Below, one piece after another: positions 17,320-52,462 of a DNA stretch of 64,000 nucleotides. Every line of letters starts with the position of its first letter. Positions within the stretch are counted from its first letter, which is position 1. Origin of the DNA: an uncultured Myxococcales bacterium (lineage in GTDB: Bacteria > Myxococcota_A > Polyangia > Fen-1088); NCBI GenBank assembly GCA_937889515.1, contig CALAOV010000342.1:3993-67992 (forward strand), in the 5' to 3' direction. The position numbers and the translations under genes were made by a program. Under the pieces are notes generated by a model. It made no database searches, had not been told where the DNA came from, and saw only the letters and a list, made by a program, of their open reading frames with translations.

Positions 17320-20300
17320 AACCGCCGCCCCAGCTGGGCCGGTTGGCCCGCACCATCGCCAAGGTGGCTCTGGTGGCCGTGGCGGCGGTCGCGCTCCTGG
17401 TCGGGGGCGCCTGGTTGTTCCTACAGACGCGCTGGGGCGGTCGGGTGGTCCGACACTTCGCCTTGCCCAGGATCAACGCGCAGATCGCCGGCAAGCTGGA
17501 GCTCGGGCGCTTCCGCTTCGGCGGTGATCATCTGGCGCTCACGGAGATCGTCCTGCGGGATCCTGCGGGCACGGTCGTCGCGCGGATCGCGCAGATCGAT
17601 CTCAGCTTCTCGCGGAGCGCGCTCCTGCACCGGCACCTGGATCTGAGAGATCTCGCGGTCGCGCGGCCGGAGCTCTGGCTGGTGCAGGACGAAAATGGGC
17701 TGAATTTGGGTCGCGCGCTGGCGGCGCGAAGGCCCGAGGTGGAAAAGCCGCCGCGGTCGGGATCGACGGGTCCCGGGATGATCATCGATCTGCGCAAGCT
17801 GACGATCCGCGACGGGACGATCGATCTTCGGTCGACGGCGGCCGATCCGCCACGCCACCTGCACGTCGCCGCGCTGGCGGTCGATGGCGCGGCGCACTAC
17901 GACGCGGGCCAGTCGCGGGTTTCACTGGACCTGGCGGTCGACGCGCGGGGCGGCCATCTCGACGCGCGGGGGAATTTCGATCTCCTGCAACTGCGCGCGC
18001 TCGCTCCCGGTCTGGCGGTTCACGTGCGCGATCTGGATTTCTCCCAGCTGGTCGAGGGGGCGCCGTCCTCGACGCTGGCGTTCGAGCTCTCCGCGCTCGG
18101 GGGCGGACGTGACCTGACGTCGCTGGACGGATCGCTCGATTTCGCCCTGCCGGCCGGGCGCTTGGCCGAACGATCGTTCGGTCCGATTTCGCTGCGCGCA
18201 CGGGCTTCCCAGGGCCTGATCACGCTGGCGGATCTCCGCGCCGTGTTGCCGGGCGTCGAGATCACGGCCAAAGGCACCGCCAGTGCCGCGACGATCGACC
18301 TGCGGGCGCGCGTCGACGCGGACGATCTCGCAGCCCTCGCGCAAAGCCTGGTCCCCTGGGGAATCGAGCCGCCAGCGCTGGCCGGCCATGGGCGCCTCGA
18401 CCTCGCGGTCGGCGGGCGATTGGACGCGCCGTCGTTGCGGATGACCGGTGACCTGCCCCGGCTTCGGGTCGGCACGAGCTCGGTCGAGAGCCTGACCCTG
18501 ACCGCGTTCGTGCCCGACCTGCGCTCTCCCGAGGCCGCCGATGTCGATCTGGCCGCCCCCCGTGCCTTCCTGGGTGGACAGACGTTGCGCGGCCTCACCT
18601 TGTCGGTTCATGCCGGCGGCACCCTCCTGTCGGCCAGCGCCCGGACCCGGGCACCGTTTCCGATGACGCTCGCCGTTCGGGGCTTTCGGGGATCGTCCCC
18701 CTCTGCTCTCACCATCGACGCGCTCGATCTCCGCTATGCAGAAGCGAGCTGGTCGTTGGTGCGGCCGGCGCGGCTGGAATTCGGCGGCGGTCGCTTCTCC
18801 GTCGAGGGGTTCGCGCTGCGCTCCGGTCGGGAGCGGATCGAGGCCGACCTCTCGCAGAGCCAGCGCGGCATCCGCGGTCGCCTGGTCGTCGCGAAGCTCG
18901 ACCTCTCCCGCCTGCCACGCGCCTTCGTGCCGCCCGCGCTGGGCGTGGCCGGAATGGTCGACGTCGACGCGCGCCTGGCCGGCAGCGCAACAGATCCCCG
19001 CCTCGACGCCCGGGTTTCTCTGTCCGGCGGTCGCTTTCACGGGTACCGCGATCTTTCGTTGACGCTCGACGCGCACACCGCGGCGGCGCGCGCACGCGGG
19101 CGACTGGACGTGCGCGGCCTCGGCGCCGCGATCTCCACCCGCTTCGACCTCCCGGCGGCCTGGCCGATCCGCGATGGCCGCGCGCCATTGCTCCTGGATC
19201 TGACGCTGGCGGAGATCGATCTCCCGAGCACGATCCAGGCGCTGGCGACCGCGACCGGCCGGCCGATTCCCGCCCACCTGCGCGGTCGGGGTCACCTGAC
19301 GGCGCGCCTCGACGGCACGCTGCAGGAACCTCGCCTTTCTCTGGCGATCGGTGCCAAGGCCCTGGTCGTGGAAGGTCAAACGGTCGGTGACGTCGACCTG
19401 GCGATTCACGGCGACGGCGACCGTCCACTGGAAGCACACCTGCAGGTCACCACCAGCGGGGCGGGCGGTGCGCACACGGCGATCGACCTGACCACGCCCC
19501 TGTCTCTGCGGGCCGCCCTGCGTCGCCCGCCCACCCCCGACACGCTGGTGCGCACGCCGATCGAGATGCGGGGCGAGGTCGATCGGCTCCCGCTGGCCGT
19601 ACTGGCGCAGCTCGCCCGCTATCGCCCTGCCGTCGGCGGAACGCTCAGCTCCCACCTGGCCTTCTCCGGGACGGCGCTGGAACCTCGGGGCACCCTCACC
19701 GCCGACGTCGTCGGGGCCACCGCCCAGGGCGTGCCAGCCACCGACGCCCGCCTGGAGCTCGAGCTCGAGCGCCGCGCGATCGACGCGCACCTGCGGGTGC
19801 TGCGGCAAAAGCATCCACTGTTGGCGCTCGAGGCGCACCTGGGTGCGGGGGGCTCCGTATGGCGCAACCCCGCGCGGCTGGCGGATGCGCCCCTTCGAGT
19901 GCGCGCCGTGGTGGGTCCGCTCGAGATCCAGCGGCTCGGCCTCCCCCCGCTCAGCGATCGCGATCCCCCGCGCGCGCTCAAGGGACGGGTCCACCTGGAT
20001 CTGACCGTCGACGGAACCTTGCGGGCGCCGCGGGTGGTCTGGCACACCGACGCCGACGACATCCGCCTCGACAGGTCGCTGGTGGGTGTGGCGCACCTGG
20101 CAGGCACCTACGCGGATCGCCGAGCGACCGTGAACGCGCGCCTGGTCACCGTCAATCAAGGCGAGCTGAATGCGGTCGCGGTCACCACCGCCGATCTCGG
20201 GTATCCCCAGATCACCCGCGGCCTCGACGTTCACCATCTCCCGCTCGACGTGCGCCTCGACGCGCAGCGCTTCGACGTACAGGGGCTCTCGGGCGTGACG

Positions 20301-21644
20301 CAGGGGCTGCGCACGGTGGGCGGCCTCTTCTCGGCCTCCGCGAACGTGCGCGGCACCGTGGCCGATCCCCGCGTCAGCGGGCGGCTCGAATGGACCGACG
20401 GGCTCCTCGCCATCACGGGCCTCGGCGAGTACCACGACATCCACCTGGCCGTGCACGGCGACGATCAGAAGCTGATCCTCGACGAGCTCCGCGCCCGAAG
20501 CGGCAATGGAATGGCGCGGGTCACGGGAGACGCCTCCCACGCCGCGGGGGCCTATCATTTCTCTGCCCGCGCCGACGTCGCCCGTTTCCCGATCTACCAG
20601 GAAGGCCAGCCCCTGGCTCAGGTCTCGCTCAGCACGACGCTGACAGGGACGACGGCACCGTTCGACACCCGGGCCGACGTCCAGATCGACAACGCGCGGA
20701 TCGAGCTCAGCGACGCCAAACGAAAGAATCTCCAGTCGCTGGCGAGCCCGGCCGACGTCGTGCTGGTCGATGCCGGCCAGCCGCTCAACCGGTCCCAGGC
20801 CGAAAGGCTGCGGGCACTCCTGGCGGCCCGTCCCAAGCCGAAAGGCGGGCCAGCGTCTGCGGCCGGCGCTCCGGCGCCGCCACCGATCGCCGCGGTCAGC
20901 GCCGTGCGGGTCACCGTGAACGCCCCGCGGAAGATCTGGGTCACCGGCAAGGACGCCTATTTCGAGATCGGGCTTGGTCCGGGATTTCGTGTCTCGATGA
21001 CCGACCGGACGCGGGTGGTCGGTCAGGTCGTCGTCAAGCGCGGGCGCATCGACATCTTCGGGCGACGCTTCGACCTTCGGGCAGACTCGACGCTCGAGTT
21101 CAGCGGCTCGCCCGATCATCCCCGGCTGGACGTGACCGCCCAGTACCAGAACCAGCTCGAAAACATCACCGTCGTGCTGACCGCCAAGGGCCCGCTCGAG
21201 CATCTGACCGTCACGGTGACGTCGCCCAACCGTCCCGAGCTCACCGAGTCCCAGCTCTACACGCTGGTCATCACCGGCCACCTTCAGCTCGGCAGCGGGA
21301 CTTCGGGGTCGTCGACCCCCACGGCGGAGGCGGCATCGCTGCTGGGCGGGGCGCTGGCCGCCCGCCTGCAGAAGACGCTGGCCAAGAAGCTGCCCCTCGA
21401 CGTCCTCACCGTCGACGCGGGGGGTGGCGAGGGGCTGACCGGAACCCAGCTCGAAGCGGGGCGCTATGTCGCCGACAAGCTCTACGTTGGGTACGTGGGC
21501 CGGGTGGGGGCCGATCCCAACCTCTACCAGAACCGCAACGCCGTCCACGTCGAGTACCAGCTCAGCTCCCGTTGGGGCGTCGACGGGGAATACGGCGATG
21601 TCGGCACCGGCTCGCTCGACCTCACCTGGAAAAAGAACTACTGA
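17316..21644 (+). CDS. tamB: Translocation and assembly module subunit TamB (AsmA-like N-terminus, DUF490 C-terminus)
   Basis: N-terminal TM anchor IAKVALVAVAAVALLVGGAWLFL. Repetitive beta-rich body. The C-terminus LYVGYVGRVG...VEYQLSSRWGVDGEYGDVGTGSLDLTWKKNY resembles the DUF490 end. The TTG start at 17316 (SD GAGG 5 nt upstream) overlaps the tamA stop (TTGA). The 5' part of the 1828-aa ORF overlaps tamA and is rejected. Confidence 0.8.
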   Translation: MKPPPQLGRLARTIAKVALVAVAAVALLVGGAWLFLQTRWGGRVVRHFALPRINAQIAGKLELGRFRFGGDHLALTEIVLRDPAGTVVARIAQIDLSFSRSALLHRHLDLRDLAVARPELWLVQDENGLNLGRALAARRPEVEKPPRSGSTGPGMIIDLRKLTIRDGTIDLRSTAADPPRHLHVAALAVDGAAHYDAGQSRVSLDLAVDARGGHLDARGNFDLLQLRALAPGLAVHVRDLDFSQLVEGAPSSTLAFELSALGGGRDLTSLDGSLDFALPAGRLAERSFGPISLRARASQGLITLADLRAVLPGVEITAKGTASAATIDLRARVDADDLAALAQSLVPWGIEPPALAGHGRLDLAVGGRLDAPSLRMTGDLPRLRVGTSSVESLTLTAFVPDLRSPEAADVDLAAPRAFLGGQTLRGLTLSVHAGGTLLSASARTRAPFPMTLAVRGFRGSSPSALTIDALDLRYAEASWSLVRPARLEFGGGRFSVEGFALRSGRERIEADLSQSQRGIRGRLVVAKLDLSRLPRAFVPPALGVAGMVDVDARLAGSATDPRLDARVSLSGGRFHGYRDLSLTLDAHTAAARARGRLDVRGLGAAISTRFDLPAAWPIRDGRAPLLLDLTLAEIDLPSTIQALATATGRPIPAHLRGRGHLTARLDGTLQEPRLSLAIGAKALVVEGQTVGDVDLAIHGDGDRPLEAHLQVTTSGAGGAHTAIDLTTPLSLRAALRRPPTPDTLVRTPIEMRGEVDRLPLAVLAQLARYRPAVGGTLSSHLAFSGTALEPRGTLTADVVGATAQGVPATDARLELELERRAIDAHLRVLRQKHPLLALEAHLGAGGSVWRNPARLADAPLRVRAVVGPLEIQRLGLPPLSDRDPPRALKGRVHLDLTVDGTLRAPRVVWHTDADDIRLDRSLVGVAHLAGTYADRRATVNARLVTVNQGELNAVAVTTADLGYPQITRGLDVHHLPLDVRLDAQRFDVQGLSGVTQGLRTVGGLFSASANVRGTVADPRVSGRLEWTDGLLAITGLGEYHDIHLAVHGDDQKLILDELRARSGNGMARVTGDASHAAGAYHFSARADVARFPIYQEGQPLAQVSLSTTLTGTTAPFDTRADVQIDNARIELSDAKRKNLQSLASPADVVLVDAGQPLNRSQAERLRALLAARPKPKGGPASAAGAPAPPPIAAVSAVRVTVNAPRKIWVTGKDAYFEIGLGPGFRVSMTDRTRVVGQVVVKRGRIDIFGRRFDLRADSTLEFSGSPDHPRLDVTAQYQNQLENITVVLTAKGPLEHLTVTVTSPNRPELTESQLYTLVITGHLQLGSGTSGSSTPTAEAASLLGGALAARLQKTLAKKLPLDVLTVDAGGGEGLTGTQLEAGRYVADKLYVGYVGRVGADPNLYQNRNAVHVEYQLSSRWGVDGEYGDVGTGSLDLTWKKNY

Positions 21645-39943: not shown

Positions 39944-41776
39944 TCAGTACGACAGCCCGAAGCCGTACGGAAAAAGCGGATCGGTGCTGGCGTCGCCGTC
40001 ATTGATCGGAATCTGCGTCAGCTCCCGCGGCCAGCTGTGCGAGAGCTTGCCGGTCGGCTTGAAATCGCCGGTCAGGACGTCGGCCACCCCCTCCCCTTCG
40101 CTTCCGGGGAGCCAGGCGACGACCACCGCGTCCGCGTGCTTGAAGATCGAGGCGACCAGCAGCGGCCGCCCCGTGAGCAACACGACCACCACGGGCTTGC
40201 CCGCCGCCTGGGCGTCGACCACCAGAGCCTCGTCTGCCTTGGTCAGCTCCGGGATGTTGCGATCGCCCCGCCCCTCGGCATAGGGCTCCTCGCCCACCAC
40301 GACGACGTTGACGTCCGCGCGCGCCGCCTCCGGTCCGACCTCGTCGCCCGAAAATGTCACCGCGGCGGGCGTGGTGGCCGCGCTCCGGATTGCTTCGAGG
40401 ATGGTCGTGCCGGCGGTCGTGCGGCCGCGCTTGCCCTGCCACCCGACGGTCCAGCCGCCGCACTGGGCGCCGATGTCGTCGGCCTTGGCGCCGACCACGT
40501 TGATGCGGGCCGCCTTCGACAGCGGCAAAACGCGTCGATCGTTCTGGAGGAGCACCAGGCTCTCGCGAACCGCCTGGCGCGCGATCTCCCGGTGCGGCCT
40601 CGAACCAATCGCCGCGGTCAATCGCCGATCGGTGAAGGGATGCTCCCACAGTCCGAACCGCGCCTTCTGGCGGAGGATGCGGCGGACGGCGTCGTCGACG
40701 CGGGCGATCGGAATGCGACCGGCCGCCACCAGCTCCCTCATCGTCGTGATGAAGTCGCGGAAGTTCGTCGGCACCATCACCATGTCGATGCCGGCGTTGA
40801 TGCTGGTCTCGACCTGCTGTGAATAGTCGCCCGGAAGCTTGTTGATCGCCTCCCAGTCGGTGACCACGAAGCCGGTGAAGCCGAGCTCGCCCTTGAGGAC
40901 GTCGGTGATGAGCCGCCGGTTGGCGTGCATGGGCGTGCCGTTCCAGCTGCTGTAGGAGACCATGACCGATCCGACCCCGGCGGCAATGGCCGCCGCGTAG
41001 CCGGGCAGATGAATCGCGCGCAGCTCGGCCTCGGAGATCACGGCATCCCCCTGGTCTTTGCCGAACATCGTGCCGCCGTCGGCCAGGAAGTGCTTGGCGC
41101 AGGCGAGGACGCCGCCGCCGCTGTCGGTCTCGCCGACCTTGGGCGTCGCCTGTTGCAGCCCGCGCACCACCGCCGGCCCCATCAGGGCCGCGAGCGCGGG
41201 CGTCTCGCCGAACCCCTCGTAGGTGCGCCCCCAACGTTCGTCGCGCGGCACGGCGATGCAGGGCGAGAAGGCCCAGCGCGCACCCGCGCCCGTCACCTCC
41301 AGCGCCGTCGTGCGCGCGACGCTCTCGACCAAAGCGGGATCGCGGGTGCAGCCGAGGCCGATGTTGTGGGGAAAGATCACGGCGCCCCGGACGCCGCCCA
41401 TCCCGTGGACCGCGTCGGTGCCGTAGAGGATCGGAATCGCCAGGCGGGTGGCCAGGGCGGCGGTTTGAAAGACGTCGATCGAGTCGGCCCACACGGCCGG
41501 CTGGTTGGGCGTCGGCAACGACTCGCCCCCGTTCAGGATCGATCCCAGAAAGAAGTCGGTGATGTCGCCGGGCGAGGCGATCGCCGTGCGGTCGATCTGG
41601 GTCATCTGCCCGATCTTCTCGTCCAGCGTCATGCGCGCCAGCAGCGCCTCGAGGTCGGGCGCCGGGGAGCCCCTCTGGGCGGGCAGAGAGACAGACGCCG
41701 GCGGCGCGGGCGGGGGCAGACCCGCGCAACCGAACGCCACGGCGAGCCCAAAGAGCGAGAGACCTCGATGAATCAC
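39944..41776 (-). CDS. bglX: Periplasmic beta-glucosidase, GH3 (BglX-like) lipoprotein
   Basis: Lipobox AVAFGC. The motif LDEKIGQMTQIDRTAIASPGDITDFFLGSILNGGES and the catalytic-region GFVVTDWEAI are GH3 signatures. Confidence 0.85.
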   Translation of the reverse strand: MIHRGLSLFGLAVAFGCAGLPPPAPPASVSLPAQRGSPAPDLEALLARMTLDEKIGQMTQIDRTAIASPGDITDFFLGSILNGGESLPTPNQPAVWADSIDVFQTAALATRLAIPILYGTDAVHGMGGVRGAVIFPHNIGLGCTRDPALVESVARTTALEVTGAGARWAFSPCIAVPRDERWGRTYEGFGETPALAALMGPAVVRGLQQATPKVGETDSGGGVLACAKHFLADGGTMFGKDQGDAVISEAELRAIHLPGYAAAIAAGVGSVMVSYSSWNGTPMHANRRLITDVLKGELGFTGFVVTDWEAINKLPGDYSQQVETSINAGIDMVMVPTNFRDFITTMRELVAAGRIPIARVDDAVRRILRQKARFGLWEHPFTDRRLTAAIGSRPHREIARQAVRESLVLLQNDRRVLPLSKAARINVVGAKADDIGAQCGGWTVGWQGKRGRTTAGTTILEAIRSAATTPAAVTFSGDEVGPEAARADVNVVVVGEEPYAEGRGDRNIPELTKADEALVVDAQAAGKPVVVVLLTGRPLLVASIFKHADAVVVAWLPGSEGEGVADVLTGDFKPTGKLSHSWPRELTQIPINDGDASTDPLFPYGFGLSY

Positions 41777-41849: not shown

Positions 41850-41863
41850 TCGTCTTGCCGTCG

Positions 41864-42844
41864 ATGAAACCGCCGTTTCGAATCACACCGCGTATCTTGA
41901 CGCTCTCCACCGACATCGCACGGTTGGTCGGACGCTGCGAAGGGCTGAGCGGGACACAGCCGCAACCGCAACTCCGACGCCAGAACCGAATTCGAACCGT
42001 GCAGGGATCGGTCGCTATCGAGGGCAACACCCTCTCGCTCGACCAGATCACGGCGATTCTGGACCAGAAGACCGTCCGGGGTCCCCGCCGCGAGGTCACC
42101 GAGGTGCGCAATGCGATAGCGGCCTACGATCGGGCCGCCGCCTGGCGGGGAGGCGCGATGCGAGATCTGCTGGCCGCCCATGGTGTCATGATGGCTGGCC
42201 TCGTGACCGATGCGGGTCGCTGGCGATCGCGGGACATCGGGGTCATTCGCGGCTCGAAGGTGGGCCACGTGGCTCCGCGCGCCGGGCGTGTCCCCGAACT
42301 GATGCGGGGCCTGTTTTCGTTCTTGGCGCGCGATCGGGCCACACCCACGATCGTGAAGGCCTGCGTGTTTCACTACGAGCTGGAATTCATCCATCCCTTC
42401 AGCGATGGGAATGGCCGCCTGGGACGCCTCTGGCAACACGTCATCTTGCTGGGCGAGAGTCCGGCCTTCGCGAACGTGCCAACCGAATCTGTCATCAAGC
42501 GGCGCCAGGGCGACTACTACGCGACCCTCGCGACGTGCGATCGCGCCGGGGACTCGACCTCCTTCGTCGAGCTCATGCTCGACGCCCTGCTGGAGGCGCT
42601 GGCCGAGCTCGCCTCCGAGCTTCGCCCGGCGGCGCCCGACGCGGGCGAGCGGCTCGCGGCGGCGGGCCGGCATTTCGGCGACGCTGTATTTTCGCGCAAG
42701 GACTACTTGGCGCTACATCGAGGGATCGGAGCGGCCACCGCCAGTCGGGACCTTCGCCGCGGCGTCGATCTCGCCCAGCTGAGGGTCACCGGCGAGCGCG
42801 CAACGGCGAGATACCGCTTCCGCGGTCGCGGGCGGGCCTCGTGA
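41864..42844 (+). CDS. fic: Fic-family protein (AMPylase), class II with N-terminal inhibitory motif
   Basis: Fic motif HPFSDGNGRLGR (HxFx[DE]GNGRxxR). The N-terminal SVAIEGN matches the [ST]xxxE[GN] auto-inhibitory helix motif. Confidence 0.85.
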   Translation: MKPPFRITPRILTLSTDIARLVGRCEGLSGTQPQPQLRRQNRIRTVQGSVAIEGNTLSLDQITAILDQKTVRGPRREVTEVRNAIAAYDRAAAWRGGAMRDLLAAHGVMMAGLVTDAGRWRSRDIGVIRGSKVGHVAPRAGRVPELMRGLFSFLARDRATPTIVKACVFHYELEFIHPFSDGNGRLGRLWQHVILLGESPAFANVPTESVIKRRQGDYYATLATCDRAGDSTSFVELMLDALLEALAELASELRPAAPDAGERLAAAGRHFGDAVFSRKDYLALHRGIGAATASRDLRRGVDLAQLRVTGERATARYRFRGRGRAS

Positions 42845-42900: not shown

Positions 42901-43740
42901 TCAACGTTGGTGGTCGCGCGCGGCCTCCGCCTCCTGGACTGCCTGGCCAGCGCGCTCCGACTCGAGCCGCGCCCGGCGGAGACGATCCTCCGCTTCGCTC
43001 AACGCCTGCCGCGCGGTCTCGACGTCCCGCTCCCCTTTCTCCAGCGTTCGACGCGCCCGATCGGCTTCGTCCCGCAGCGCGCGGCTCCGACGTTCCGCGT
43101 CCGCCCGCGCGCGGACGCGCTCCGCCTCCGCCCGGGCCCGTGTCTTCGCCTCTTCGGTCGCGCGGGCCGCGACTTCCCGAGATCCGAGGTCGGTATTCCG
43201 CGGCGCGGTCGGCGGCGCGGCGGTCCCCAAATCGGACGGCGGCCCGAGCAGGCTCAGGAAGTCCTCGTCCCCGACATCCTGAATCAGCCGCCCGGACTCG
43301 ATCGTCTGGCGAATCTCCTCGCTGGCCATGCCGACCCGCAGGTTCCGCACGACGCGCTCGAGGATCTGCGGACGCGCCGCCTGTCCCGATGCGACCAGGA
43401 TCTCTTCGGCGCGGGCGCGGAGGCGTTTGAGCGCATCGCGGTGCGCCGCCATCGCCTCCGCGGTGTCGTCGCCCCGCTCGGCGCCCGCGACCGGCCGCTG
43501 CGCCCCCCGCAGACGGGCGGTGGTCTCGGCGAACAGCCTGAGAAGCGGCGCTTCCTGCCGCGCGAGCTGATTGACGATCCAGGCCGACACGCTGGGCCGC
43601 TGGATCTTCTGGACCTCCTTGGCTTCCTTCGCTTGCCCGGCGGCCTTGAGCGCATCGGACAAGAGCTTGCGCTCCGGGACGAACGTCTTGAGCGACGCGG
43701 CAAACAGTCGATCGAGATCCAGTGGCACCGGTCCGCTCAC
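42901..43740 (-). CDS. Coiled-coil hypothetical protein (Arg/Glu/Ala-rich C-terminus)
   Basis: The GTG at 43740 overlaps the TGA of the upstream BNR gene (GTGA). The C-terminal 100 aa are highly charged heptad-like (RARAEAERVRARADAERRSRALRDEADRARR...). Confidence 0.5.
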   Translation of the reverse strand: MSGPVPLDLDRLFAASLKTFVPERKLLSDALKAAGQAKEAKEVQKIQRPSVSAWIVNQLARQEAPLLRLFAETTARLRGAQRPVAGAERGDDTAEAMAAHRDALKRLRARAEEILVASGQAARPQILERVVRNLRVGMASEEIRQTIESGRLIQDVGDEDFLSLLGPPSDLGTAAPPTAPRNTDLGSREVAARATEEAKTRARAEAERVRARADAERRSRALRDEADRARRTLEKGERDVETARQALSEAEDRLRRARLESERAGQAVQEAEAARDHQR

Positions 43741-44888
43741 GGCTCGACGTATCGCCAGAGCCCCTGATCCCACATGAGCCCCACGAACACGTAGTGACTT
43801 CCGTCGTTGGTCACCACCACGCTATTCGGCCCGATCACCAGCTCGTCGGGCACGGTCGCGGTGGCCCAGGCGGTCCCGGGTTGCGGCGCGATCTCGAACT
43901 GCGTCCCCAGATCGCAACCCGAGCAGGCCCAGGCGTACATCGCGTAGACATTCGTCGGCGTCCCCCAAACCACCGCTTCGGGCGTCTGGCCGCTGTCGAC
44001 GCGCGACCAATTCGCGCCGAGATCGGTGCTGCGATAGACGCCCTGCCCGTCGGGTCCGCTACCGCCCGCCACGAAGAGGGTCGACCCGTTCTGATAGATC
44101 TGCGAATTGCCGTGCGGGTGCTGCAGGCCGGCGAGGCCGTTCGGAATGGTCCAAGTCGCCCCGCCGTCGCTGGTCACGATCGCGCTGGCGCCGTCCTGCG
44201 CGATGGCGAACCAGGTCTTCCGGGTCGTCGCGGCGCTGCCGGTGTCGATGAAGTACGGGTACCAGGAGATTCCGCCGCTGGGGAAACCGCTGCCGCCGAG
44301 CATCTGCCAGGTCGCCCCGCCGTCGGTCGACTCCACGATCCCGTCGGCCTCGTGCAGTCCGCTCACCAGATGGGTGCCGTCGTACGGATCGATCTTCAAC
44401 GAGTAGAGGCTGACGGGCAGGGCGGTCTGCGTGAACGTCGCGCCGCCGTCGATCGATTTGTAGATGGTGTTGTAGCCGGCCGCCCAGATCGTGGCCGGCG
44501 TCGTCCCGGCGACGGCGATCACCGTGCCCCGCGGGACGTCCGGGAGCGTGTCGTTGATCTGCGTCCAGGTGAAGCCGTAGTCGGACGACTTCCAGAGACC
44601 CGCGCTGCTGCCCCCGACATAGAGATCGCTCGGCCGCGCCGGATCCCCCACGATGCTGCCCGGGCCGAAGATGTTGGCGGTCGGCCGGAGAACGGCCGCC
44701 GGCATGTCGCTGGGCGTGACGTTGATCCAGACGCCGGGCGGACAGGTCCCCGCGGCGACGCAGGGATCGGGCGGAAGCGGGCCGGCGTCGTTGTGGGTGG
44801 TCCCACCGTGGGAGGCGCCACACGCCAGCAGAAGCGAGGCCGCCGCGGCGAGACACCCGACGCGATCCCCGACCGTCGACCGCTTCAT
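43737..44888 (-). CDS. BNR/Asp-box repeat lipoprotein (sialidase-like beta-propeller)
   Basis: Lipoprotein signal MKRSTVGDRVGCLAAAASLLLAC|GA. Multiple Asp-box repeats (SIDGGATF, STDGGATW, TSDGGATW, STDLGANW). Its ATG overlaps the upstream gene's stop (ATGA). Confidence 0.7.
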   Translation of the reverse strand: MKRSTVGDRVGCLAAAASLLLACGASHGGTTHNDAGPLPPDPCVAAGTCPPGVWINVTPSDMPAAVLRPTANIFGPGSIVGDPARPSDLYVGGSSAGLWKSSDYGFTWTQINDTLPDVPRGTVIAVAGTTPATIWAAGYNTIYKSIDGGATFTQTALPVSLYSLKIDPYDGTHLVSGLHEADGIVESTDGGATWQMLGGSGFPSGGISWYPYFIDTGSAATTRKTWFAIAQDGASAIVTSDGGATWTIPNGLAGLQHPHGNSQIYQNGSTLFVAGGSGPDGQGVYRSTDLGANWSRVDSGQTPEAVVWGTPTNVYAMYAWACSGCDLGTQFEIAPQPGTAWATATVPDELVIGPNSVVVTNDGSHYVFVGLMWDQGLWRYVEP

Positions 44889-46147
44889 GGGCTCACCGAT
44901 TGTTCCCAAAAGACCACCTCCCCGTCGCGGTTGGCGACGAAAGACACGCCTCCGTCGTGGGAGATGACCAGCGCGAGACCGGCGGGGTGATCGTGGACGA
45001 AGCGGTAGGCGGCCCGGTGGCGGGTGCCCACACTCTCGATGTCGTCCGGCTCGCGCTGCCGGCCTTCGATGTCGAGGGCGCGCCAGACCCGCGCGGGCCC
45101 GGGGAGCTCGGCCGAGACCTCGGCGCCGAAGCCGAGAAGCCTGAATCGTTTGTCGACGACCACGGCGCCGTCGATGGCGGTGAGGTTGGCGATGAGGCGG
45201 CTCAATTCGAAGATCGCCTGCTCGAGCTTCTCGAGGCCGGGGCTCGAATCCTGCGCGAAATCCTGCCACCCGACCGACGCCTTCGAGGTGGCGACGGCCA
45301 CACTTTCGAGGATCTGAAAGAGCAAGGTCCGGTAGCGGCCGGGGGGCTCATCCCGGTCGAACCGGTACTTGAGTCGGACGCCGTCCAGGCCGTTCGCGGT
45401 CTCACTGGCGGCGGGATCCACCACCAAGATCATACCGCCGTGGCCGAGGCCCCGGACCAACTGAATGGCGCGGCGGAACATATGCTGGCCCACCCGCCCC
45501 ACCAGCGACGGGTCCGCCAGCGTCGGCGAAGACGTCTGGGCTTGCCGCGCGGCGTGCTCGGCACGAACTTCATCCCGTTCCCGGGCGAACATCGCCGGGA
45601 GCCACTCGGAATCGAACACGTCTATCAGCGCGTCGACCAGCAATCCCCGCTCGAGCGCCCCCACCAATTTTCCGGCGCAGCGGACCGCGATGTGCCCCGG
45701 ACTGGTCACGTGGATGATCGGATCGTAGGTCCAGTTGGGAACCAGGCTGCGTCCGCCCCAGGTGGGCGCGAGCCAGGCCGGTCCCGAGTGCGCCAGTCCC
45801 CAGATCCGGAGTTTTCCCTCCTCGACGGAGGCACCGATGAGCGAGGTCTCGAACGGCACCGACGGACTGAGGCGGCGCAGCTCGTCCGCGCTCAAGGCCC
45901 GGCTGTGATCGAAGCGCAGCCGCAAGACCCCCTCGTTGGGAACGCCGGTGGCGGGCAATTGCTCGGGCGGCGTGAGCAGAAGACGAAAGCGGGTCGGGCG
46001 GGCCTCTTCCGAGGTCAGGGACGCCTGGAACGCCACCGAGAGGGCTTCCCGAAAAGCATCGCGGGGCACCGACAGCGCTCGGTCAGCGGGCCAATGATCC
46101 TCCACGTACTGGGCGAGGTCCGGTGGATAGGCGTGCTCGCCAGGCAT
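44885..46147 (-). CDS. Protein with C-terminal diadenylate cyclase (DAC/DisA_N)-like domain and uncharacterised ~250-aa N-terminal domain
   Basis: The C-terminal region shows DAC hallmark motifs in the correct order and spacing: GGMILVVD (cf. GALIVIE), IDGAVVVDKRFRLLGFGAEV (DGA motif) and GTRHRAAYRF (RHR motif). VISHDGGVSFVA sits where CdaA has VVSEETGGISLA. No TM segments or HhH domain. Confidence 0.65.
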   Translation of the reverse strand: MPGEHAYPPDLAQYVEDHWPADRALSVPRDAFREALSVAFQASLTSEEARPTRFRLLLTPPEQLPATGVPNEGVLRLRFDHSRALSADELRRLSPSVPFETSLIGASVEEGKLRIWGLAHSGPAWLAPTWGGRSLVPNWTYDPIIHVTSPGHIAVRCAGKLVGALERGLLVDALIDVFDSEWLPAMFARERDEVRAEHAARQAQTSSPTLADPSLVGRVGQHMFRRAIQLVRGLGHGGMILVVDPAASETANGLDGVRLKYRFDRDEPPGRYRTLLFQILESVAVATSKASVGWQDFAQDSSPGLEKLEQAIFELSRLIANLTAIDGAVVVDKRFRLLGFGAEVSAELPGPARVWRALDIEGRQREPDDIESVGTRHRAAYRFVHDHPAGLALVISHDGGVSFVANRDGEVVFWEQSVSP

Positions 46148-46161
46148 CGCCCTAGCATGCC

Positions 46162-47700
46162 TCAGGTCGCGTTCGACGCCAGGCGCCGTTCCAGCCGCCG
46201 GGCCAGACGGGCGAACGGATAACCGAGGGCAAAATAGAGCGCGGCGCAGAGCGCGCCCGGGAGCAACCAGCCCCGGGCGTCGACGGCGGTGATGGTCATC
46301 CGCTTGGTCAGCTCGACGACGGTAAGGACCGAAACCAGCGAGCTGTCCTTGAGCAGCGAGATGAAGTCATTGGTGACGCCCGGGATGGCCAGCCGGAGTC
46401 CTTGCGGCAAGACCACCGTGCGCAGCGCCAGGCGGCGCGACGCGCCCAGCGCCAGCGCCGCCTCCCACTGGGCGCGGGGTACGGCGCCGATCGCGCCCCG
46501 GTAGATCTCCGCCTCGTAGGCCGCGTAGTTGAGGCCGAGTCCGAGAATGGCGGCGGTCCAGGGGCCGAGCGACACGATGCCGGAGAGGCCGTAATAAAGG
46601 AGATAGAGCTGCAAGAGGACCGGTGTCCCGCGGACGATCTCGATGTAGGCGGTCGCGAAGGGCCGCAGGCGTGGGCTCTCCAGACGCACGAGCGCCAGCG
46701 CCAGACCGAGCGGCACCGCGATCGCCATCGCGGCCAGCGAGATGAGGAGCGTCACCAGCGCGCCCTGCAGAAACAGCGCGATCTGGCGGGGGGTCAGCGG
46801 ACGGGCCGCCGCGGAGGTGGAGACGGAGAGGAGAGAGCCCGGGCCCGCCGCGACGCGCGCCGGAGCCGGAGTGGGCGATAGCGCCAGGGCCGCCTCGCGA
46901 TCCCCGTCGAGATTCCAGCGCGCCAGCGTCTTGCGCCAGGCGCCGGAGGCGATCGTCTGGGCGAGCGCCTGGTCGAGCGCGGCCCGCAGATCCTCGTCGG
47001 CGGGGCGCAGCGCGACGGCGTAACGCCCTTCGGCCACGTCGCCGACCGCCACCAGCGTCGGATGTCGCCCGAGATAGCGCGCGACGATCACGTCGTCGAG
47101 GAGGACCGCGTCGGTCCGACCGCGCTCGAGATCGATGAGGGGCTCGTCGACGCCCTCGTAGGGCAAGGCGACGGCGCCGGCCTCGCGCAGGAGATCCCAG
47201 GCCAGGCTGTTGGCCAGCGTTCCCACCCGCAGACCGCTCAACGACGCCAGATCACGAACGCGCGCGTCGGCGCGGCGCGCAACCAGTCGCTCGGAAAAGA
47301 GGTAGTACGGGCGGGTGAAGGCGACCCGCGCCGCGCGCGCCGGCGTCACCTCGATCCCGTTGAGCGCGACGTCGAAGGTCCCGCGCTCGAGCGACGGGAT
47401 CAGGGTCGACCAGTCGTTCTGCACCAGCCGCGCGCGAACCCCCAGCGCCGCGGCCAGCGTGTCGGCGAGCTCGACCTCGAAGCCCACCAGCGCCCCGTCC
47501 CGATCCTCGTAGACATACGGCTCGCCCCCTTGCACGTCGGCGCCCCAGAGCAACTCGCCGCGCGCCCGAATTCTGTCGGGGGCGCTGTCAGACGCAGGCC
47601 CGGCGGGCGCGCACCCCGCGATGGCGGCGGCGCCGGCCACGGCGAGGCCCGCGGCCATCGCCAGCGGTCCGAGCACTCGAGGCGGGGCCGGCCAATACAT
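46162..47700 (-). CDS. Amino-acid ABC transporter, fused periplasmic substrate-binding domain + permease (polar amino acid/opine family)
   Basis: N-terminal SBP_bac_3-like domain. C-terminal permease with the EAA-like loop EAALALGASRRLALRTVVLPQGLRLAIPGVTNDFISLLKDSSL. It ends 14 nt upstream of the DAC-like gene. Confidence 0.8.
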   Translation of the reverse strand: MYWPAPPRVLGPLAMAAGLAVAGAAAIAGCAPAGPASDSAPDRIRARGELLWGADVQGGEPYVYEDRDGALVGFEVELADTLAAALGVRARLVQNDWSTLIPSLERGTFDVALNGIEVTPARAARVAFTRPYYLFSERLVARRADARVRDLASLSGLRVGTLANSLAWDLLREAGAVALPYEGVDEPLIDLERGRTDAVLLDDVIVARYLGRHPTLVAVGDVAEGRYAVALRPADEDLRAALDQALAQTIASGAWRKTLARWNLDGDREAALALSPTPAPARVAAGPGSLLSVSTSAAARPLTPRQIALFLQGALVTLLISLAAMAIAVPLGLALALVRLESPRLRPFATAYIEIVRGTPVLLQLYLLYYGLSGIVSLGPWTAAILGLGLNYAAYEAEIYRGAIGAVPRAQWEAALALGASRRLALRTVVLPQGLRLAIPGVTNDFISLLKDSSLVSVLTVVELTKRMTITAVDARGWLLPGALCAALYFALGYPFARLARRLERRLASNAT

Positions 47701-47761: not shown

Positions 47762-49300
47762 CTACTGGAGCAGCACCTTGGTGGGGCCGAAGGCGTCGTT
47801 GTTCGTGCCGTCGCCGATCTCGCCGAATCCGTTGTATCCCCAGCACCAGATCCCCAGGGCCGCCGTGAGGACACAGGTATGGTTGTACCCGGCGCCGATG
47901 CTCTGCACGACGTCGTTGCCGAGATTGACAACCACCGGCGTCAGCCGATTGGTCGTGGTGAGATCTCCGATCTCACCCTCGGCGTTGTACCCCCAGCAAG
48001 CCACCTGACCGCTGGTCAGCAGCGCACAAGAGTGATCGGCGCCGATGGCCAGCTGCTTGGCGGGTCCCGGAAGGCCGACCACGGCGGTCGGCGTCAGATG
48101 ATTGGTGGTCGTGCCGTCGCCGCCTTCGCCGACCACGTTTTGGCCCCAGCACCAGACCGAGCCGTTCGCGTGAAGGGCGCAGGTGTGGGCCGAGCCGCCG
48201 GCGATCGCGATCTCGCTCGAGTCGGCGTAGGAGTACGTCGCCGTGGTCCGGTTGGTGGTCGTGCCATCGCCCAGCTGGCCGACGTTGTTGCTGCCCCAGG
48301 CGAGGAAGCGCCCGTCGCCCATCGTGGCGAGGGAGTGAAAGGCTCCGGCACCCAGCGATCGGATGGCCGCGCCGTTGAACGAGATCCCGGTGATGCCGGA
48401 AACCTGCACCGGCGTCGCGCTGTTGACGGTGGTGCCGTTCCCCAGCTCTCCGTCGCCGTTGTACCCCCAGCAGAACACCGCCTGAGCGCTGGAGTTGTTG
48501 GCCGGGCCGGGCCGGTAGGCGCAGGTGTGGTAGAGGCCGGCCGCGATCATGGTGAACGCGCCCGTGAGCGGCACCTGCACCGGCGTCGAGCTGCCGCCAC
48601 CGACGGCAATGCCCGGTCCCGCCCCACCGTAGTAGCTGGTCCCCCAGCACCAGACCGTTCCGTCGGCGTGCAGGGCGCAGGCATGGTAGGCGCCGGCCGC
48701 GATCGCGGTGACGGCCGTGGCGGGCCCTGGCAGCGCCACCGGCACGTCGTTGAACGCCGCCTGGCCCCACTCGAGCGGGGCCGCGCTGGTGAGCGCGAAC
48801 GAGTTGTACCCGCCGGCCGCGATGGACAGCACGTTGGTAACGAAGTTCACGCTCACCGACGCCGGGTTGTTGGGGCGGAAGGTGAGCGCGACCGTGGTGA
48901 CGACGCCCGAACGGACCAGGGCGGTGACGGGGTCGGCGGTGTAGGTCGGCGCGGACGACCCGATCCCCGTGCAGGTGGCGGCGTACGCCGCGCCGGTGAC
49001 GGCATCGTTGCCGACCGGAAGCGAGCCCAGCGACAGGCTCGCCGTCGACGCGCCCGCCGTGAGCGTGAAGCTCTGGATCGAAGCGGTCCCCGACGGCGGC
49101 GTCACGGTGATGCGGACACACTGCGTGCCCGTCGGTACCGCCGTCAGCTGCGCGGTGACCTCGGTGGTGCTCCCTTCGTCCGTTCCAGAGCCGGCGCCCG
49201 TCGTCCGCTCGGGAGCCCCGCATCCCAGATTCAACGCCACGCCCAAGAGCGCAGCAACCGTCGTTGTGCCTTTGGATCCACCACAACCGTTTCGCTTCAT
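47762..49300 (-). CDS. RCC1-repeat (beta-propeller) lipoprotein
   Basis: SD GGAGG 10 nt upstream. Lipobox LNLGCGA. Seven or more RCC1-type repeats (GxxHxCAL...G.VWCWGxNxxGxLGxG). Confidence 0.8.
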   Translation of the reverse strand: MKRNGCGGSKGTTTVAALLGVALNLGCGAPERTTGAGSGTDEGSTTEVTAQLTAVPTGTQCVRITVTPPSGTASIQSFTLTAGASTASLSLGSLPVGNDAVTGAAYAATCTGIGSSAPTYTADPVTALVRSGVVTTVALTFRPNNPASVSVNFVTNVLSIAAGGYNSFALTSAAPLEWGQAAFNDVPVALPGPATAVTAIAAGAYHACALHADGTVWCWGTSYYGGAGPGIAVGGGSSTPVQVPLTGAFTMIAAGLYHTCAYRPGPANNSSAQAVFCWGYNGDGELGNGTTVNSATPVQVSGITGISFNGAAIRSLGAGAFHSLATMGDGRFLAWGSNNVGQLGDGTTTNRTTATYSYADSSEIAIAGGSAHTCALHANGSVWCWGQNVVGEGGDGTTTNHLTPTAVVGLPGPAKQLAIGADHSCALLTSGQVACWGYNAEGEIGDLTTTNRLTPVVVNLGNDVVQSIGAGYNHTCVLTAALGIWCWGYNGFGEIGDGTNNDAFGPTKVLLQ

Positions 49301-49420
49301 CACGGAGGCCTCCTTGCGCTCGAGCGCGCGCCCCGTAAGTAACGCGGCCGCTCGACGCGCAGGGACAGGTTGATTGCCGAACCTCCGCGCGGATGCTTGC
49401 AACCGCGGGCGGAAATCCGC

Positions 49421-50347
49421 TCAGCCGCCGTCGTGAAAGGTCGAGCAGGCCGCCGGATCGCCGCTATCCATTCCGACGCCGAACCACTTCTGCCGATCGG
49501 CCGCGCTGCCGTGGGTGAAGGTCTCGGGGCGCACCCGACCGGTCACCTCCTTTTGAATGCGGTCGTCGCCCACGGCCGCCGCGGCGTCCAGCGCCTCGGC
49601 GATCTCGGCGCGGCCCACCTTGCCGGCGGCGTAGGCGGCGTTGCCCCACACGCCGGCGTAGCAGTCCGCTTGCAGCTCCAATCGTACCGACAGCGCGTCT
49701 CGCTGCTCCGGGTGCTCCTCCTGTGCCTGCCGCACCCGCCGTTCGATGCCGAGGACATCCTGGACGCGGTGGCCGTACTCGTGCGCCACCACGTAAGCTT
49801 CGGCAAAGTCGCCGCCGCGCGCGTGAAAGCGCTGGTGCAGCTCCTCGAAAAAACCGAGATCCAGATAGACCCGGTCGTCCTCGGGACAATAGAAGGGGCC
49901 GGTCCGCGCGCTGGCCACGCCGCAGCCGCTGCGCGTCGCCTCCGTGAACAGCACCAGCCGCGCCGGCCGGTAGCCATTCCCGGCCGCGGCGAGCTGCCGC
50001 CGCCAGAACGACTGCACGTTGCTTTCGACGCAGACCACGAACTTCGCCGGGTCGCTGGTCGAGGTGACACCGGCGCAGCTCCCGCCGAGCTGACTTCCCG
50101 AATTTGCAGAGCCGCGCGGCACCGGTGGCCCCGTCTGGACGCCGCGCTGGCTCTCCTCGATCAGCCGGCCGACGGCGGCGGCGGTGGGGCTGCCGTTGCT
50201 GGCCATCACCTGCACGATGAAATAGATGACGCCGCCCGCCAACCCGAGGCCCCCCACGCCCATCCCTACCCCGCCGCCCGGGAAGCGCATCCCGCGGCGA
50301 TCCTCGACCTCGGAGCTGTCCGCCCGATCTTCCTCGTCGAATTTCAT
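49421..50347 (-). CDS. Putative neutral zinc metallopeptidase, YpfJ family (PF04228)
   Basis: N-terminal TM, then YVVAHEYGHRVQDVLGI (HExxH-type zinc site in the YpfJ-characteristic context). Confidence 0.75.
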   Translation of the reverse strand: MKFDEEDRADSSEVEDRRGMRFPGGGVGMGVGGLGLAGGVIYFIVQVMASNGSPTAAAVGRLIEESQRGVQTGPPVPRGSANSGSQLGGSCAGVTSTSDPAKFVVCVESNVQSFWRRQLAAAGNGYRPARLVLFTEATRSGCGVASARTGPFYCPEDDRVYLDLGFFEELHQRFHARGGDFAEAYVVAHEYGHRVQDVLGIERRVRQAQEEHPEQRDALSVRLELQADCYAGVWGNAAYAAGKVGRAEIAEALDAAAAVGDDRIQKEVTGRVRPETFTHGSAADRQKWFGVGMDSGDPAACSTFHDGG

Positions 50348-50383
50348 GATCGAATGACCAAGCCTAGCCGATACAATTGACCC

Positions 50384-52462
50384 GTGATCGATCGGATACG
50401 GCTCGTCGGTTTCGCCGCGCTATCGCTGGGCTTCGTGGGCGGCTGCAGTCCGTCCGCGGCCGGCGGCCCAGACGGCGGCGGTCCCGGCGCCGGCGGTCGT
50501 GCCACGGGTGGCACGGGCGGGGCGACCTCCGGCGGCACGTCTGGTGGCACGTCGGGTGGTACGGCAGGCGCGTCCGGGGGCGCCGACGGGGGCACGATCG
50601 TCGCATCGCAGCCGCTCAGCCCCAACATCGTCGTCGATCAATTTGGTTACCGCACGACGGCCGAAAAGATCGCGGTCGTTCGCAGCCCGCAACGCGGGTT
50701 CGATTCGACCGCGACCTTCACGCCGGGCGCGAAGTACGCCCTGGTCGACGCGCATTCGGGGCAGATGGCGCTGGAAGCCGCGCCGGCGGTCTGGAACGGC
50801 GGCGCCGTCGACAGCTCTTCGGGCGACAAGGCCTGGTGGTTCGACTTCTCGGCGGTCACCGCCGCCGGCGACTACTTCGTCCTCGACGAGACCAAAGCCG
50901 TTCGCTCCGACGTCTTCAGCATCTCCGACGCGGTCTACCGCGCCGTCCTGACGCAGGCCGAGCGGATGCTCTTCTACCAGCGCGACGGCTTTGCCAAGAC
51001 CGCCCAATACGCGGGCGCCGATTGGGCCGACGGCGCCGCGCACCTCGGGCAGTGCTACCTCTACAGCGACGCCGCCAAGACCTTGAACAAAGATCTGCAC
51101 GGCGGCTGGTGGGACGCCGGCGACTTCAACAAGTACACCAACTGGGGCGCCAGCGACGTCATCGAGCTCCTGCACGCCTACGCCGAGAGCCCCGCCGCGT
51201 TCGCGGACGACACCAACATCCCAGAATCGGGCAACGGCGTCGCCGATCTGCTCGACGAGGTGAAGTGGGAGCTCGACTGGCTGGTGCGCATGCAGCAGAG
51301 CGACGGCTCGGTCCTCAGCATCGTCGGCGAAGCGGCGGCGCCCGCCCCCGCCTTCGGCAATCCGGCGAACACCGCGCCGTCGCTGGTGACCGATCCCTGC
51401 GCCTACGGTCCCGCCTCGACCTCCGCGTCGCTGAGCGCGGCCGCCGCCTACGCGTACGCCTCGGTCGTGCTCGGTTCGGCCGCCGGATTCGGCGCGGCCT
51501 ATCCCGGCTACGCCGCCGGGTTGGTGACGCGCGCCCAGCAGGCCTGGGCCTGGGCCAAGGCCAACCCGGCCGTGTTCTTCTACAACTCCACCTCCAACCC
51601 GACGGTCGGGTCCGGGGAGCAAGAGGTCCCCCAGAGCGATCCCGACCGCAGCTACGCGCTCCTCGTGAAGCGTCTGCAGGCGGAGCTCTACCTCTACGAG
51701 GCGACCGGCGACACGACCGCCCGCGACTTCTTCGACGCCAACTACGCCGGCGTCAACTTCATCTCTCAGAAGTACATCGACGGCTCTCACGGCGAGGAGC
51801 AGGAGACGCTGCTCGAGTACACGCTGGCTCCGAATCCGACCGCGACCGTGGTGCAGAAGATCAAGTCGGCCTACCTGTCGTCGCTGCAGAGCAGCCAGAA
51901 CCTGGGCGCCATCCAGGCGACGACCGATCCGTACCTGGCGTACCTGCCCCAGTACTTCTGGGGGAGCAACCAGATCAAGAGCGACCAAGGCAACCTGTTC
52001 TACGACGTGGTGACCTTCGCGATCGACGCCTCGACCAGCGTGCAGGCCGCCAAGGGGGCCGAGCGCTACATCCACTACCTCCACGGCGTGAACCCGCTGC
52101 AGATCGTCTATCTGTCCAACATGGGCGCGACCGGCGCGTCGAAGTCGGTCACCCGCTTCTTTCATTCCTGGTACGCCACGGGCTCGCTGTGGGACGCGGC
52201 CGGCGTCTCGAAGTACGGGCCACCGCCCGGTTACCTGACCGGCGGGCCCAACCCCAGCTACACCTGGGACGGCTGCTGCCCGAATGGGTGCAGCGGCTAT
52301 TCGTGCGGCGCCGCACCGCTGTCGCCGCCCACCGGCCAGCCCGACCAGAAATCGTACGCGGATTTCAACGATGGCTGGCCGCTCGATTCATGGTCGGTGA
52401 CCGAGCCGGACGACGGCTACCAGGCCAAGTATCTCCGGTTGCTGTCCAAGTTCGTGCACTGA
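50384..52462 (+). CDS. Glycoside hydrolase family 9 (endoglucanase-like) lipoprotein with Gly/Thr/Ser-rich linker and N-terminal Ig-like (CelD_N-like) domain
   Basis: Lipobox LGFVGGC. Linker GGTSGGTSGGTAGASGG. GH9 signature DLHGGWWDAGDFNKY (cf. GGWYDAGDHVKF). (alpha/alpha)6 catalytic region. Confidence 0.8.
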   Translation: MIDRIRLVGFAALSLGFVGGCSPSAAGGPDGGGPGAGGRATGGTGGATSGGTSGGTSGGTAGASGGADGGTIVASQPLSPNIVVDQFGYRTTAEKIAVVRSPQRGFDSTATFTPGAKYALVDAHSGQMALEAAPAVWNGGAVDSSSGDKAWWFDFSAVTAAGDYFVLDETKAVRSDVFSISDAVYRAVLTQAERMLFYQRDGFAKTAQYAGADWADGAAHLGQCYLYSDAAKTLNKDLHGGWWDAGDFNKYTNWGASDVIELLHAYAESPAAFADDTNIPESGNGVADLLDEVKWELDWLVRMQQSDGSVLSIVGEAAAPAPAFGNPANTAPSLVTDPCAYGPASTSASLSAAAAYAYASVVLGSAAGFGAAYPGYAAGLVTRAQQAWAWAKANPAVFFYNSTSNPTVGSGEQEVPQSDPDRSYALLVKRLQAELYLYEATGDTTARDFFDANYAGVNFISQKYIDGSHGEEQETLLEYTLAPNPTATVVQKIKSAYLSSLQSSQNLGAIQATTDPYLAYLPQYFWGSNQIKSDQGNLFYDVVTFAIDASTSVQAAKGAERYIHYLHGVNPLQIVYLSNMGATGASKSVTRFFHSWYATGSLWDAAGVSKYGPPPGYLTGGPNPSYTWDGCCPNGCSGYSCGAAPLSPPTGQPDQKSYADFNDGWPLDSWSVTEPDDGYQAKYLRLLSKFVH

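Follow-up and report, generated by a model that had tools for sequence, protein, structure and literature searches.

A DACNV-family predicted diadenylate cyclase from an uncultured Myxococcales bacterium: a proposed pseudo-DAC and DAC tandem with narrowly conserved neighbours

Among the described diadenylate cyclases (DACs), CdaA/DacA and CdaM/DacM carry N-terminal transmembrane (TM) helices, three in the case of CdaA, CdaS carries a two-helix YojJ module, and DisA joins an N-terminal DAC domain, by way of a helical linker, to a C-terminal HhH DNA-binding domain. According to two preprints (10.64898/2026.08.10.743927 and 10.64898/2026.08.10.743972), DACs have been sorted into 22 families, and DACNG and DACNH are sibling N-terminal DAC-associated domains, both points being credited there to Galperin (J Bacteriol 2023). 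The same preprints record DAC proteins in defence systems and describe the DACNH of CdaG, a DACNG-DACNH-DAC (DS-2C) protein, as distantly related to DACs and without catalytic residues; the DS-2C proteins tested make cyclic di-AMP (c-di-AMP) in vitro, as stated in the first preprint (10.64898/2026.08.10.743927). The subject of the present analysis is a predicted DAC of 420 amino acids (aa), encoded on the minus strand within positions 42901-47700 of a 64,000-nucleotide (nt) stretch of a contig from an uncultured Myxococcales bacterium; this whole stretch is referred to as the window. DACNV-containing DACs, to which the protein is assigned below, are reportedly among the families in the catalogue of DACs that Galperin published in J Bacteriol in 2023. 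The reading favoured here, with a probability of about 0.7, is that the protein is a soluble, cytoplasmic DACNV-type DAC in which a DAC-like but catalytically dead domain (a pseudo-DAC) stands in tandem with a DAC domain, and that its closely packed neighbours reflect the synteny of a narrow clade.

Residues 29-120 of the protein matched Pfam PF21751, 'Probable sensor domain DACNV', with an E-value of 1.1e-22 and a score above the gathering cutoff (Table 1). This match lies N-terminal to the DAC fold (residues 213-416), which is the arrangement that characterises the DACNV-type family. In a preliminary description of the window the N-terminal region had been taken for a novel, unrecognised domain, with about 250 aa preceding the DAC-like domain; the region is instead the DACNV domain, by which name family members are known to both NCBI and JGI, and its actual length is about 210 aa. 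A search of a word-indexed database returned 1394 homologues of the 420-aa protein. The best 120 of these were all at least 75% identical to it, and those among the best 120 that carried an organism name came from Polyangia or Polyangiaceae metagenome-assembled genomes. Several of the listed homologues were labelled by JGI as 'sensor domain DACNV-containing protein' or 'DisA ... nucleotide-binding', and some orthologues carried a precomputed match to PF02457, the Pfam DAC family. An exhaustive search of representatives at 50% identity found 2433 clusters, 162 of them at E-values up to 1e-30, with the full-length architecture of about 410-450 aa kept down to about 27% identity. The family spans Myxococcota, Planctomycetota and Bacteroidota, and includes WP_075095895.1 from Planctomyces sp. 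SH-PL14 and WP_173241776.1 from Hymenobacter sp. BRD67, both annotated by NCBI as 'putative sensor domain DACNV-containing protein / diadenylate cyclase'. With the DACNV-containing DACs (PF21751 plus PF02457) the window protein shares the domain signature, the architecture of about 420 aa and the invariant motifs, and nothing sets it apart from them; at position 397 it has H instead of the Q of the majority. A literature search for DACNV, CdaV and pseudo or tandem DACs returned nothing relevant and no experimental study of any family member. On the evidence of its sequence, the gene is placed in an existing, widespread and already catalogued family of predicted c-di-AMP synthases that is untouched by experiment.

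The C-terminal half carries the motifs of a DAC (DisA_N-type) domain in the order in which the preliminary description had listed them, namely HGGMILVVD (residues 236-244), IDGAVVVD (325-332), GTRHRAAYRF (374-383) and SHDGG (396-400). Conservation was counted in an alignment of 53 diverse family representatives at 27-67% identity. Nine columns (E48, G237, D326, G327, G374, R376, H377, S396 and D398) were invariant, and A328, T375, R378 and G399 were kept in at least 90% of the sequences. One preprint (10.64898/2026.08.10.743972) gives D, G, G and R as the four residues conserved across all curated DACs, and this set is retained in the window protein. An AlphaFold2 (AF2) model made from 53 diverse family members had a predicted local distance difference test score (pLDDT) of 93.4 and a predicted template modelling score (pTM) of 0.89. 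The C-terminal domain of the model has the DAC alpha/beta fold and superposed on DisA at 2.5 Å, and the top 50 matches of a Foldseek search against the PDB were all DAC proteins (CdaS-like 2fb5, CdaA, CdaM, DacA and DisA). The occurrence of the motifs in order, together with top fold matches that are DACs only, far exceeds what chance would give. That the catalytic set stays invariant through so wide a divergence argues for an active enzyme, and the C-terminal half is probably an active DAC, as predicted from these conserved residues.

The third motif, canonically S-E-E-(T)-G with an acidic metal ligand, is divergent in this family and was aligned through the family profile. Against the PDB this profile gave 16 weak, sub-significant matches, 15 of them to DAC chains, aligned on GTRHR...VVSEE. 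The family pattern GTRHR...V(I/V)S(Q/H)D pairs with GTRHR...VVSEE of CdaA, and GTRHR also aligns to CdaS; from the alignment to CdaA it follows that S396 takes the place of the Ser, and D398 that of the second Glu, in canonical SEETG. The motif accordingly reads S396-H397-D398-G399-G400, with E replaced by D. The SHDGG sequence had been offered as a sign of possible degeneracy, a suggestion that the family alignment does not support, since S396 and D398 are invariant and the family consensus is SQDG, from which SHDGG departs in a minority of sequences (H in 6 of 53).

The N-terminal half appears in the model to have a DAC-like fold. In residues 29-171 the secondary-structure elements succeed one another as they do in the DAC half (helix, strand, insert, helix, hairpin, helix and three strands). 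The catalytic residues are all missing from the N-terminal half, where a different set is conserved: Y7, P8, E48, R50, W116, G117, G122, W125, P150, G151 and W182. The Pfam DACNV model spans only the first half of this N-terminal fold, with about 90 further residues beyond it, and the whole of residues 1-207 appears, as modelled, to be a DAC-like fold stripped of catalytic residues. Because the N-terminal half would thus be DAC-like but catalytically dead, the protein is read as a tandem of pseudo-DAC and DAC. The reading of the DACNV half as a degenerate DAC fold in its own right is possibly a new point; no statement on a DAC-like nature of DACNV was found in the literature examined, which did not take in the 2023 catalogue.

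Table 1. Features of the DACNV locus, with their positions in the window
Feature	Position	Strand	Details
DACNV-family predicted diadenylate cyclase, proposed pseudo-DAC + DAC tandem	44885..46147	-	420 aa; ORF, Pfam DACNV, AF2 model
N-terminal half, residues 1-207, putative catalytically dead DAC-like fold including the DACNV region	45527..46147	-	AF2 model
Pfam PF21751 DACNV match, residues 29-120	45788..46063	-	80.4 bits against a cutoff of 27; translation checked
C-terminal DAC domain, residues 213-416, predicted catalytic	44900..45511	-	carries insertions relative to canonical DACs
HGG, residues 236-238, opening the first DAC strand	45434..45442	-	G237 invariant; H236 and G238 in at least 90%
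DGA, D326-G327-A328	45164..45172	-	D and G 53/53; A 50/53
GTRHR, residues 374-378	45014..45028	-	G374, R376 and H377 invariant; T375 and R378 each 51/53
SHDGG, residues 396-400, counterpart of canonical SEETG	44948..44962	-	S396 and D398 invariant; 397 is Q in 47/53, H in 6/53
SBP-permease fusion of a polar-amino-acid-type ABC transporter	46162..47700	-	512 aa; Pfam SBP_bac_3 2e-29 and BPD_transp_1 2e-21
BNR/Asp-box (Sortilin-Vps10-like) lipoprotein	43737..44888	-	383 aa; Pfam Sortilin-Vps10 34.7 bits, BNR 26 bits
Coiled-coil-like protein	42901..43740	-	279 aa counted from GTG; ORF only
ORF, open reading frame; SBP, substrate-binding protein; ABC, ATP-binding cassette.

Several observations weigh against the reading of the protein as a pseudo-DAC and DAC tandem. 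The match to PF02457 reached only 21.8 bits, under the cutoff of 27, and covered residues 368-406 only, while a single-sequence phmmer search of the 420-aa protein against the PDB gave no match. The distance from HGG to DGA is 90 residues and that from DGA to GTRHR is 48. The corresponding spacings in CdaA are roughly 40 and 30, and in the DAC domain of the window protein the stretch from the first strand to DGA is lengthened by about 50 residues and that from DGA to GTRHR by about 18; the weak Pfam DAC score is attributed to these insertions. With S-H/Q-D-G in place of SEE(T)G, metal binding or the choice of substrate could differ. Finally, an hhalign comparison of the N-terminal with the C-terminal half was not significant (probability 0.2%, E 0.3), so that a duplication is proposed from predicted structure only and not from profile-level similarity.

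The sub-threshold Pfam score, the replacement of SEETG by SHDGG and the large insertions would also be expected if the DAC-like domain were degenerate and the protein, instead of being a cyclase, bound nucleotides as a regulator or receptor, the more so as it would already include one clearly dead DAC-like domain. However, D326, G327, G374, R376, H377, S396 and D398 stay invariant in 53 representatives down to 27% identity, as would be expected of a selected active site; moreover, the replacement of E by D in the third motif is a conservative change, and the DAC fold superposes closely on that of DisA. A regulator or receptor is for these reasons considered unlikely.

Within the tandem reading, the C-terminal half is predicted to be a complete DAC domain keeping every universally conserved catalytic residue, and two such domains meeting head to head would most likely condense two ATP into 3'3'-c-di-AMP, by analogy with DisA and CdaA. 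An active enzyme might instead make a nucleotide signal different from 3'3'-c-di-AMP, such as cUA or some further mixed dinucleotide, or might work as an asymmetric pseudo-dimer. There is precedent for the former, as minimal DACs can make 3'3'-cUA through a break in active-site symmetry, according to a preprint (10.64898/2026.08.10.743927), and the divergent third motif (SQ/HDG) together with an attached dead DAC domain could impose asymmetry. The motifs that bind adenine and phosphate, DGA and GTRHR, are, however, canonical, and c-di-AMP is what the tested DS-2C proteins, which also have extra N-terminal domains, are reported to yield, so that a different product or an asymmetric pseudo-dimer seems quite unlikely.

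The dead domain of the proposed tandem would most plausibly be the regulatory or sensory part, governing either entry to the active face or the productive dimerisation of the live domain. A dead-DAC 'sensor' half, hinted at by the predicted structure, offers a concrete regulatory idea for the DACNV family, parallel to what is said of DACNH in the defence-associated CdaG. A bolder proposal is that DACNV-type cyclases are intramolecular pseudo-dimers, in which an ancient, catalysis-dead DAC duplicate carried on the live DAC gates c-di-AMP synthesis, either because it blocks or templates the head-to-head dimer or because its vestigial site binds a nucleotide-like ligand; this proposal is offered tentatively, as a possible but doubtful extension. 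On that proposal the DACNV cyclase could rank as a principal c-di-AMP synthase of Polyangia, passed on vertically, or the product might be asymmetric instead. Across the whole family, the putatively dead DAC-like half keeps E48 without exception and R50 in at least 90% of sequences (residues 48-50, 45998..46006), and these residues could mark where the regulatory domain binds a ligand or forms an interface.

Set against the known systems, the window protein differs in the company that its DAC domain keeps. No CdaA-type TM region, DisA-type HhH domain or CdaS-type module had been seen in the preliminary description, and this was borne out. In contrast to CdaA, no hydrophobic segment was detected (maximum Kyte-Doolittle mean over 19 residues, 1.29) and the AF2 model is globular, and the protein likewise lacks the TM helices of CdaM/DacM and the YojJ module of CdaS. 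Whereas DisA begins with its DAC domain, the window protein carries its own at the C-terminus, with four residues between the fold and the chain end at residue 420. Relative to CdaA, CdaM and CdaS, the DAC domain has extra insertions and SQ/HDG for SEETG, and the regulatory module is proposed to be a dead DAC-like domain. CdaG/DS-2C is similar in being a multi-domain, soluble DAC with a domain, DACNH, that is reported to be distantly DAC-related and non-catalytic; the window protein, however, is about 420 aa long as against about 550-575 aa, lacks the C-terminal helix bundle, has no Pfam match to DACNG or DACNH at E-values up to 1, and is encoded outside any defence-island or CBASS (cyclic-oligonucleotide-based antiphage signalling system) context.

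The DACNV gene is one of four tightly packed ORFs that the open-reading-frame list places on the minus strand (Table 1). On inspection of the sequence, the stop of the DAC gene overlaps the start of the BNR gene in ATGA, and the stop of the latter overlaps the start of the coiled-coil gene in GTGA; 14 nt (46148-46161) separate the stop of the ABC gene from the ATG of the DAC gene. Genes, overlaps and spacer were all found where the preliminary description had put them. The BNR lipoprotein has the lipobox LLLAC|G, with four strict Asp-boxes and one T-variant, and the coiled-coil-like protein, for which no Pfam, NCBIfam or PADLOC family was matched, has a charged C-terminus rich in Ala, Arg and Glu. 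The SBP-permease matched NCBIfam permease and SBP families, every one of them under its equivalog cutoff, and no gene for an ABC ATPase or CBS subunit adjoins it in the window. A promoter and terminator scan of the cluster gave a signal at chance level and was uninformative. No Rfam family was matched in a scan of the whole window, and therefore no c-di-AMP riboswitch was found.

The same four genes had been read in the preliminary description as an undescribed signalling or transport module, in which the ABC transporter, DAC, BNR lipoprotein and coiled-coil protein would work together. The 4-nt overlaps and the 14-nt spacer speak for such a unit, and c-di-AMP controls the uptake of osmolytes and K+. 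The window neighbours were compared with those at 26 other orthologue-carrying loci, of which L022 and L023 belong to the window's own genome. At L024 (89% identity) the order is GH9, Zn peptidase, RCC1, ABC, DAC, BNR, a 318-aa gene and, further on, GH3, with the same 4-nt overlaps; the unannotated 318-aa gene, which overlaps the BNR stop by 4 nt, is matched to the coiled-coil gene by position alone. At L021, also at 89% identity, ABC, DAC, coiled-coil (65% identity) and GH3 follow one another without the BNR gene and without a Fic gene. Apart from the window genome, only L021 and L024 have the SBP-permease beside the DAC gene, and the full arrangement occurs only in the window genome and L024.

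Beyond these loci the arrangement is lost. None of the ABC, BNR and coiled-coil neighbours was found at 18 further Polyangia/Myxococcales loci of 68-85% identity whose flanks could be read (16 from GTDB species genomes, plus L001 and L002), and at L026 (82% identity) the neighbourhood was also different. Clustering of all flanking ORFs across 20 loci gave no recurrent partner; GH3 lay near the DAC gene in L019, L021 and the window. Furthermore, three distant members, from Hymenobacter, Planctomyces and a third lineage, sit among unrelated housekeeping genes (dprA, thyA, gyrA, adk, rpsD and ubiD). A complete absence of the arrangement from relatives, which the preliminary description had named as grounds for chance adjacency, was only narrowly avoided, through two very close relatives. 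Since, in addition, the usual target of c-di-AMP, an ABC ATPase or CBS subunit, is missing from the vicinity, a dedicated module is very unlikely. The four-gene packing is genus-level synteny of a narrow clade and not a conserved functional module. The cluster may be co-transcribed in this organism, but its packing does not speak for a shared function, and a false lead, that of a conserved DAC-transporter-propeller module, is removed. The DACNV gene itself would be a vertically inherited, strongly conserved singleton in Polyangia.

The presence of DAC proteins in defence systems, as recorded in the two preprints cited above, also raises the question of an anti-phage DAC like CdaG/DS-2C or PanS. 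A Fic gene lies two genes away in the window, and a giant SIR2-TPR gene is found further downstream in L021 and L024, either of which might be taken to favour such a role. None of the four proteins, however, had a PADLOC match, and NCBIfam gave no family-level match for the DAC, BNR and coiled-coil proteins, with DS2_3 appearing only at E 0.3. No 2TM-beta, CD-NTase or other effector partner was seen, many species of Polyangia have kept the gene at 68-89% identity, in surroundings that vary and are not those of defence, and the GC content of the locus (0.69-0.70) equals that of the surrounding genome. A defence role of the DACNV gene is unlikely, and a defence DAC of the CdaG/DS-2C or PanS kind is highly improbable.

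Other features of the flanks vary among relatives. The Fic/DOC-family gene of the window (41855..42844, plus strand; Pfam Fic 1e-18) lies on the opposite strand between the coiled-coil and GH3 genes. At its position in the 89%-identical relatives there is nothing in L021 and an unrelated 565-aa gene in L024, and in the window it looks like a recent insertion. The giant SIR2_2 and TPR protein, of about 1600 aa, follows GH3 in both of these relatives (L021, 12214..17112; L024, 15123..17263), and its place in the window genome (L022) is taken by a 184-aa gene, DUF2911 and LPG_synthase_TM. In L001 (9253..10464) and L006 (9282..10871) the gene directly downstream of, and convergent to, the DACNV gene encodes a Ser/Thr protein kinase; this adjacency, found in only these two of about 20 loci, is probably due to chance in the kinase-rich Myxococcota.

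Upstream of the SBP-permease in the window is a gene for an RCC1-repeat protein (47762..49402, 546 aa), and L024 has an extra 183-aa gene between the two. The block 47762..52462 is syntenic with L024 and comprises, besides the RCC1-repeat protein, a putative neutral Zn metallopeptidase (49421..50347) and a GH9 cellulase with CelD_N (50384..52462); together with GH3 at 39944..41776 it looks like a polysaccharide-degradation neighbourhood. Elsewhere in the window, an ORF of 1828 aa (16158..21644, plus strand) lies in the stretch of highest GC content (0.73 at 18-20 kb).

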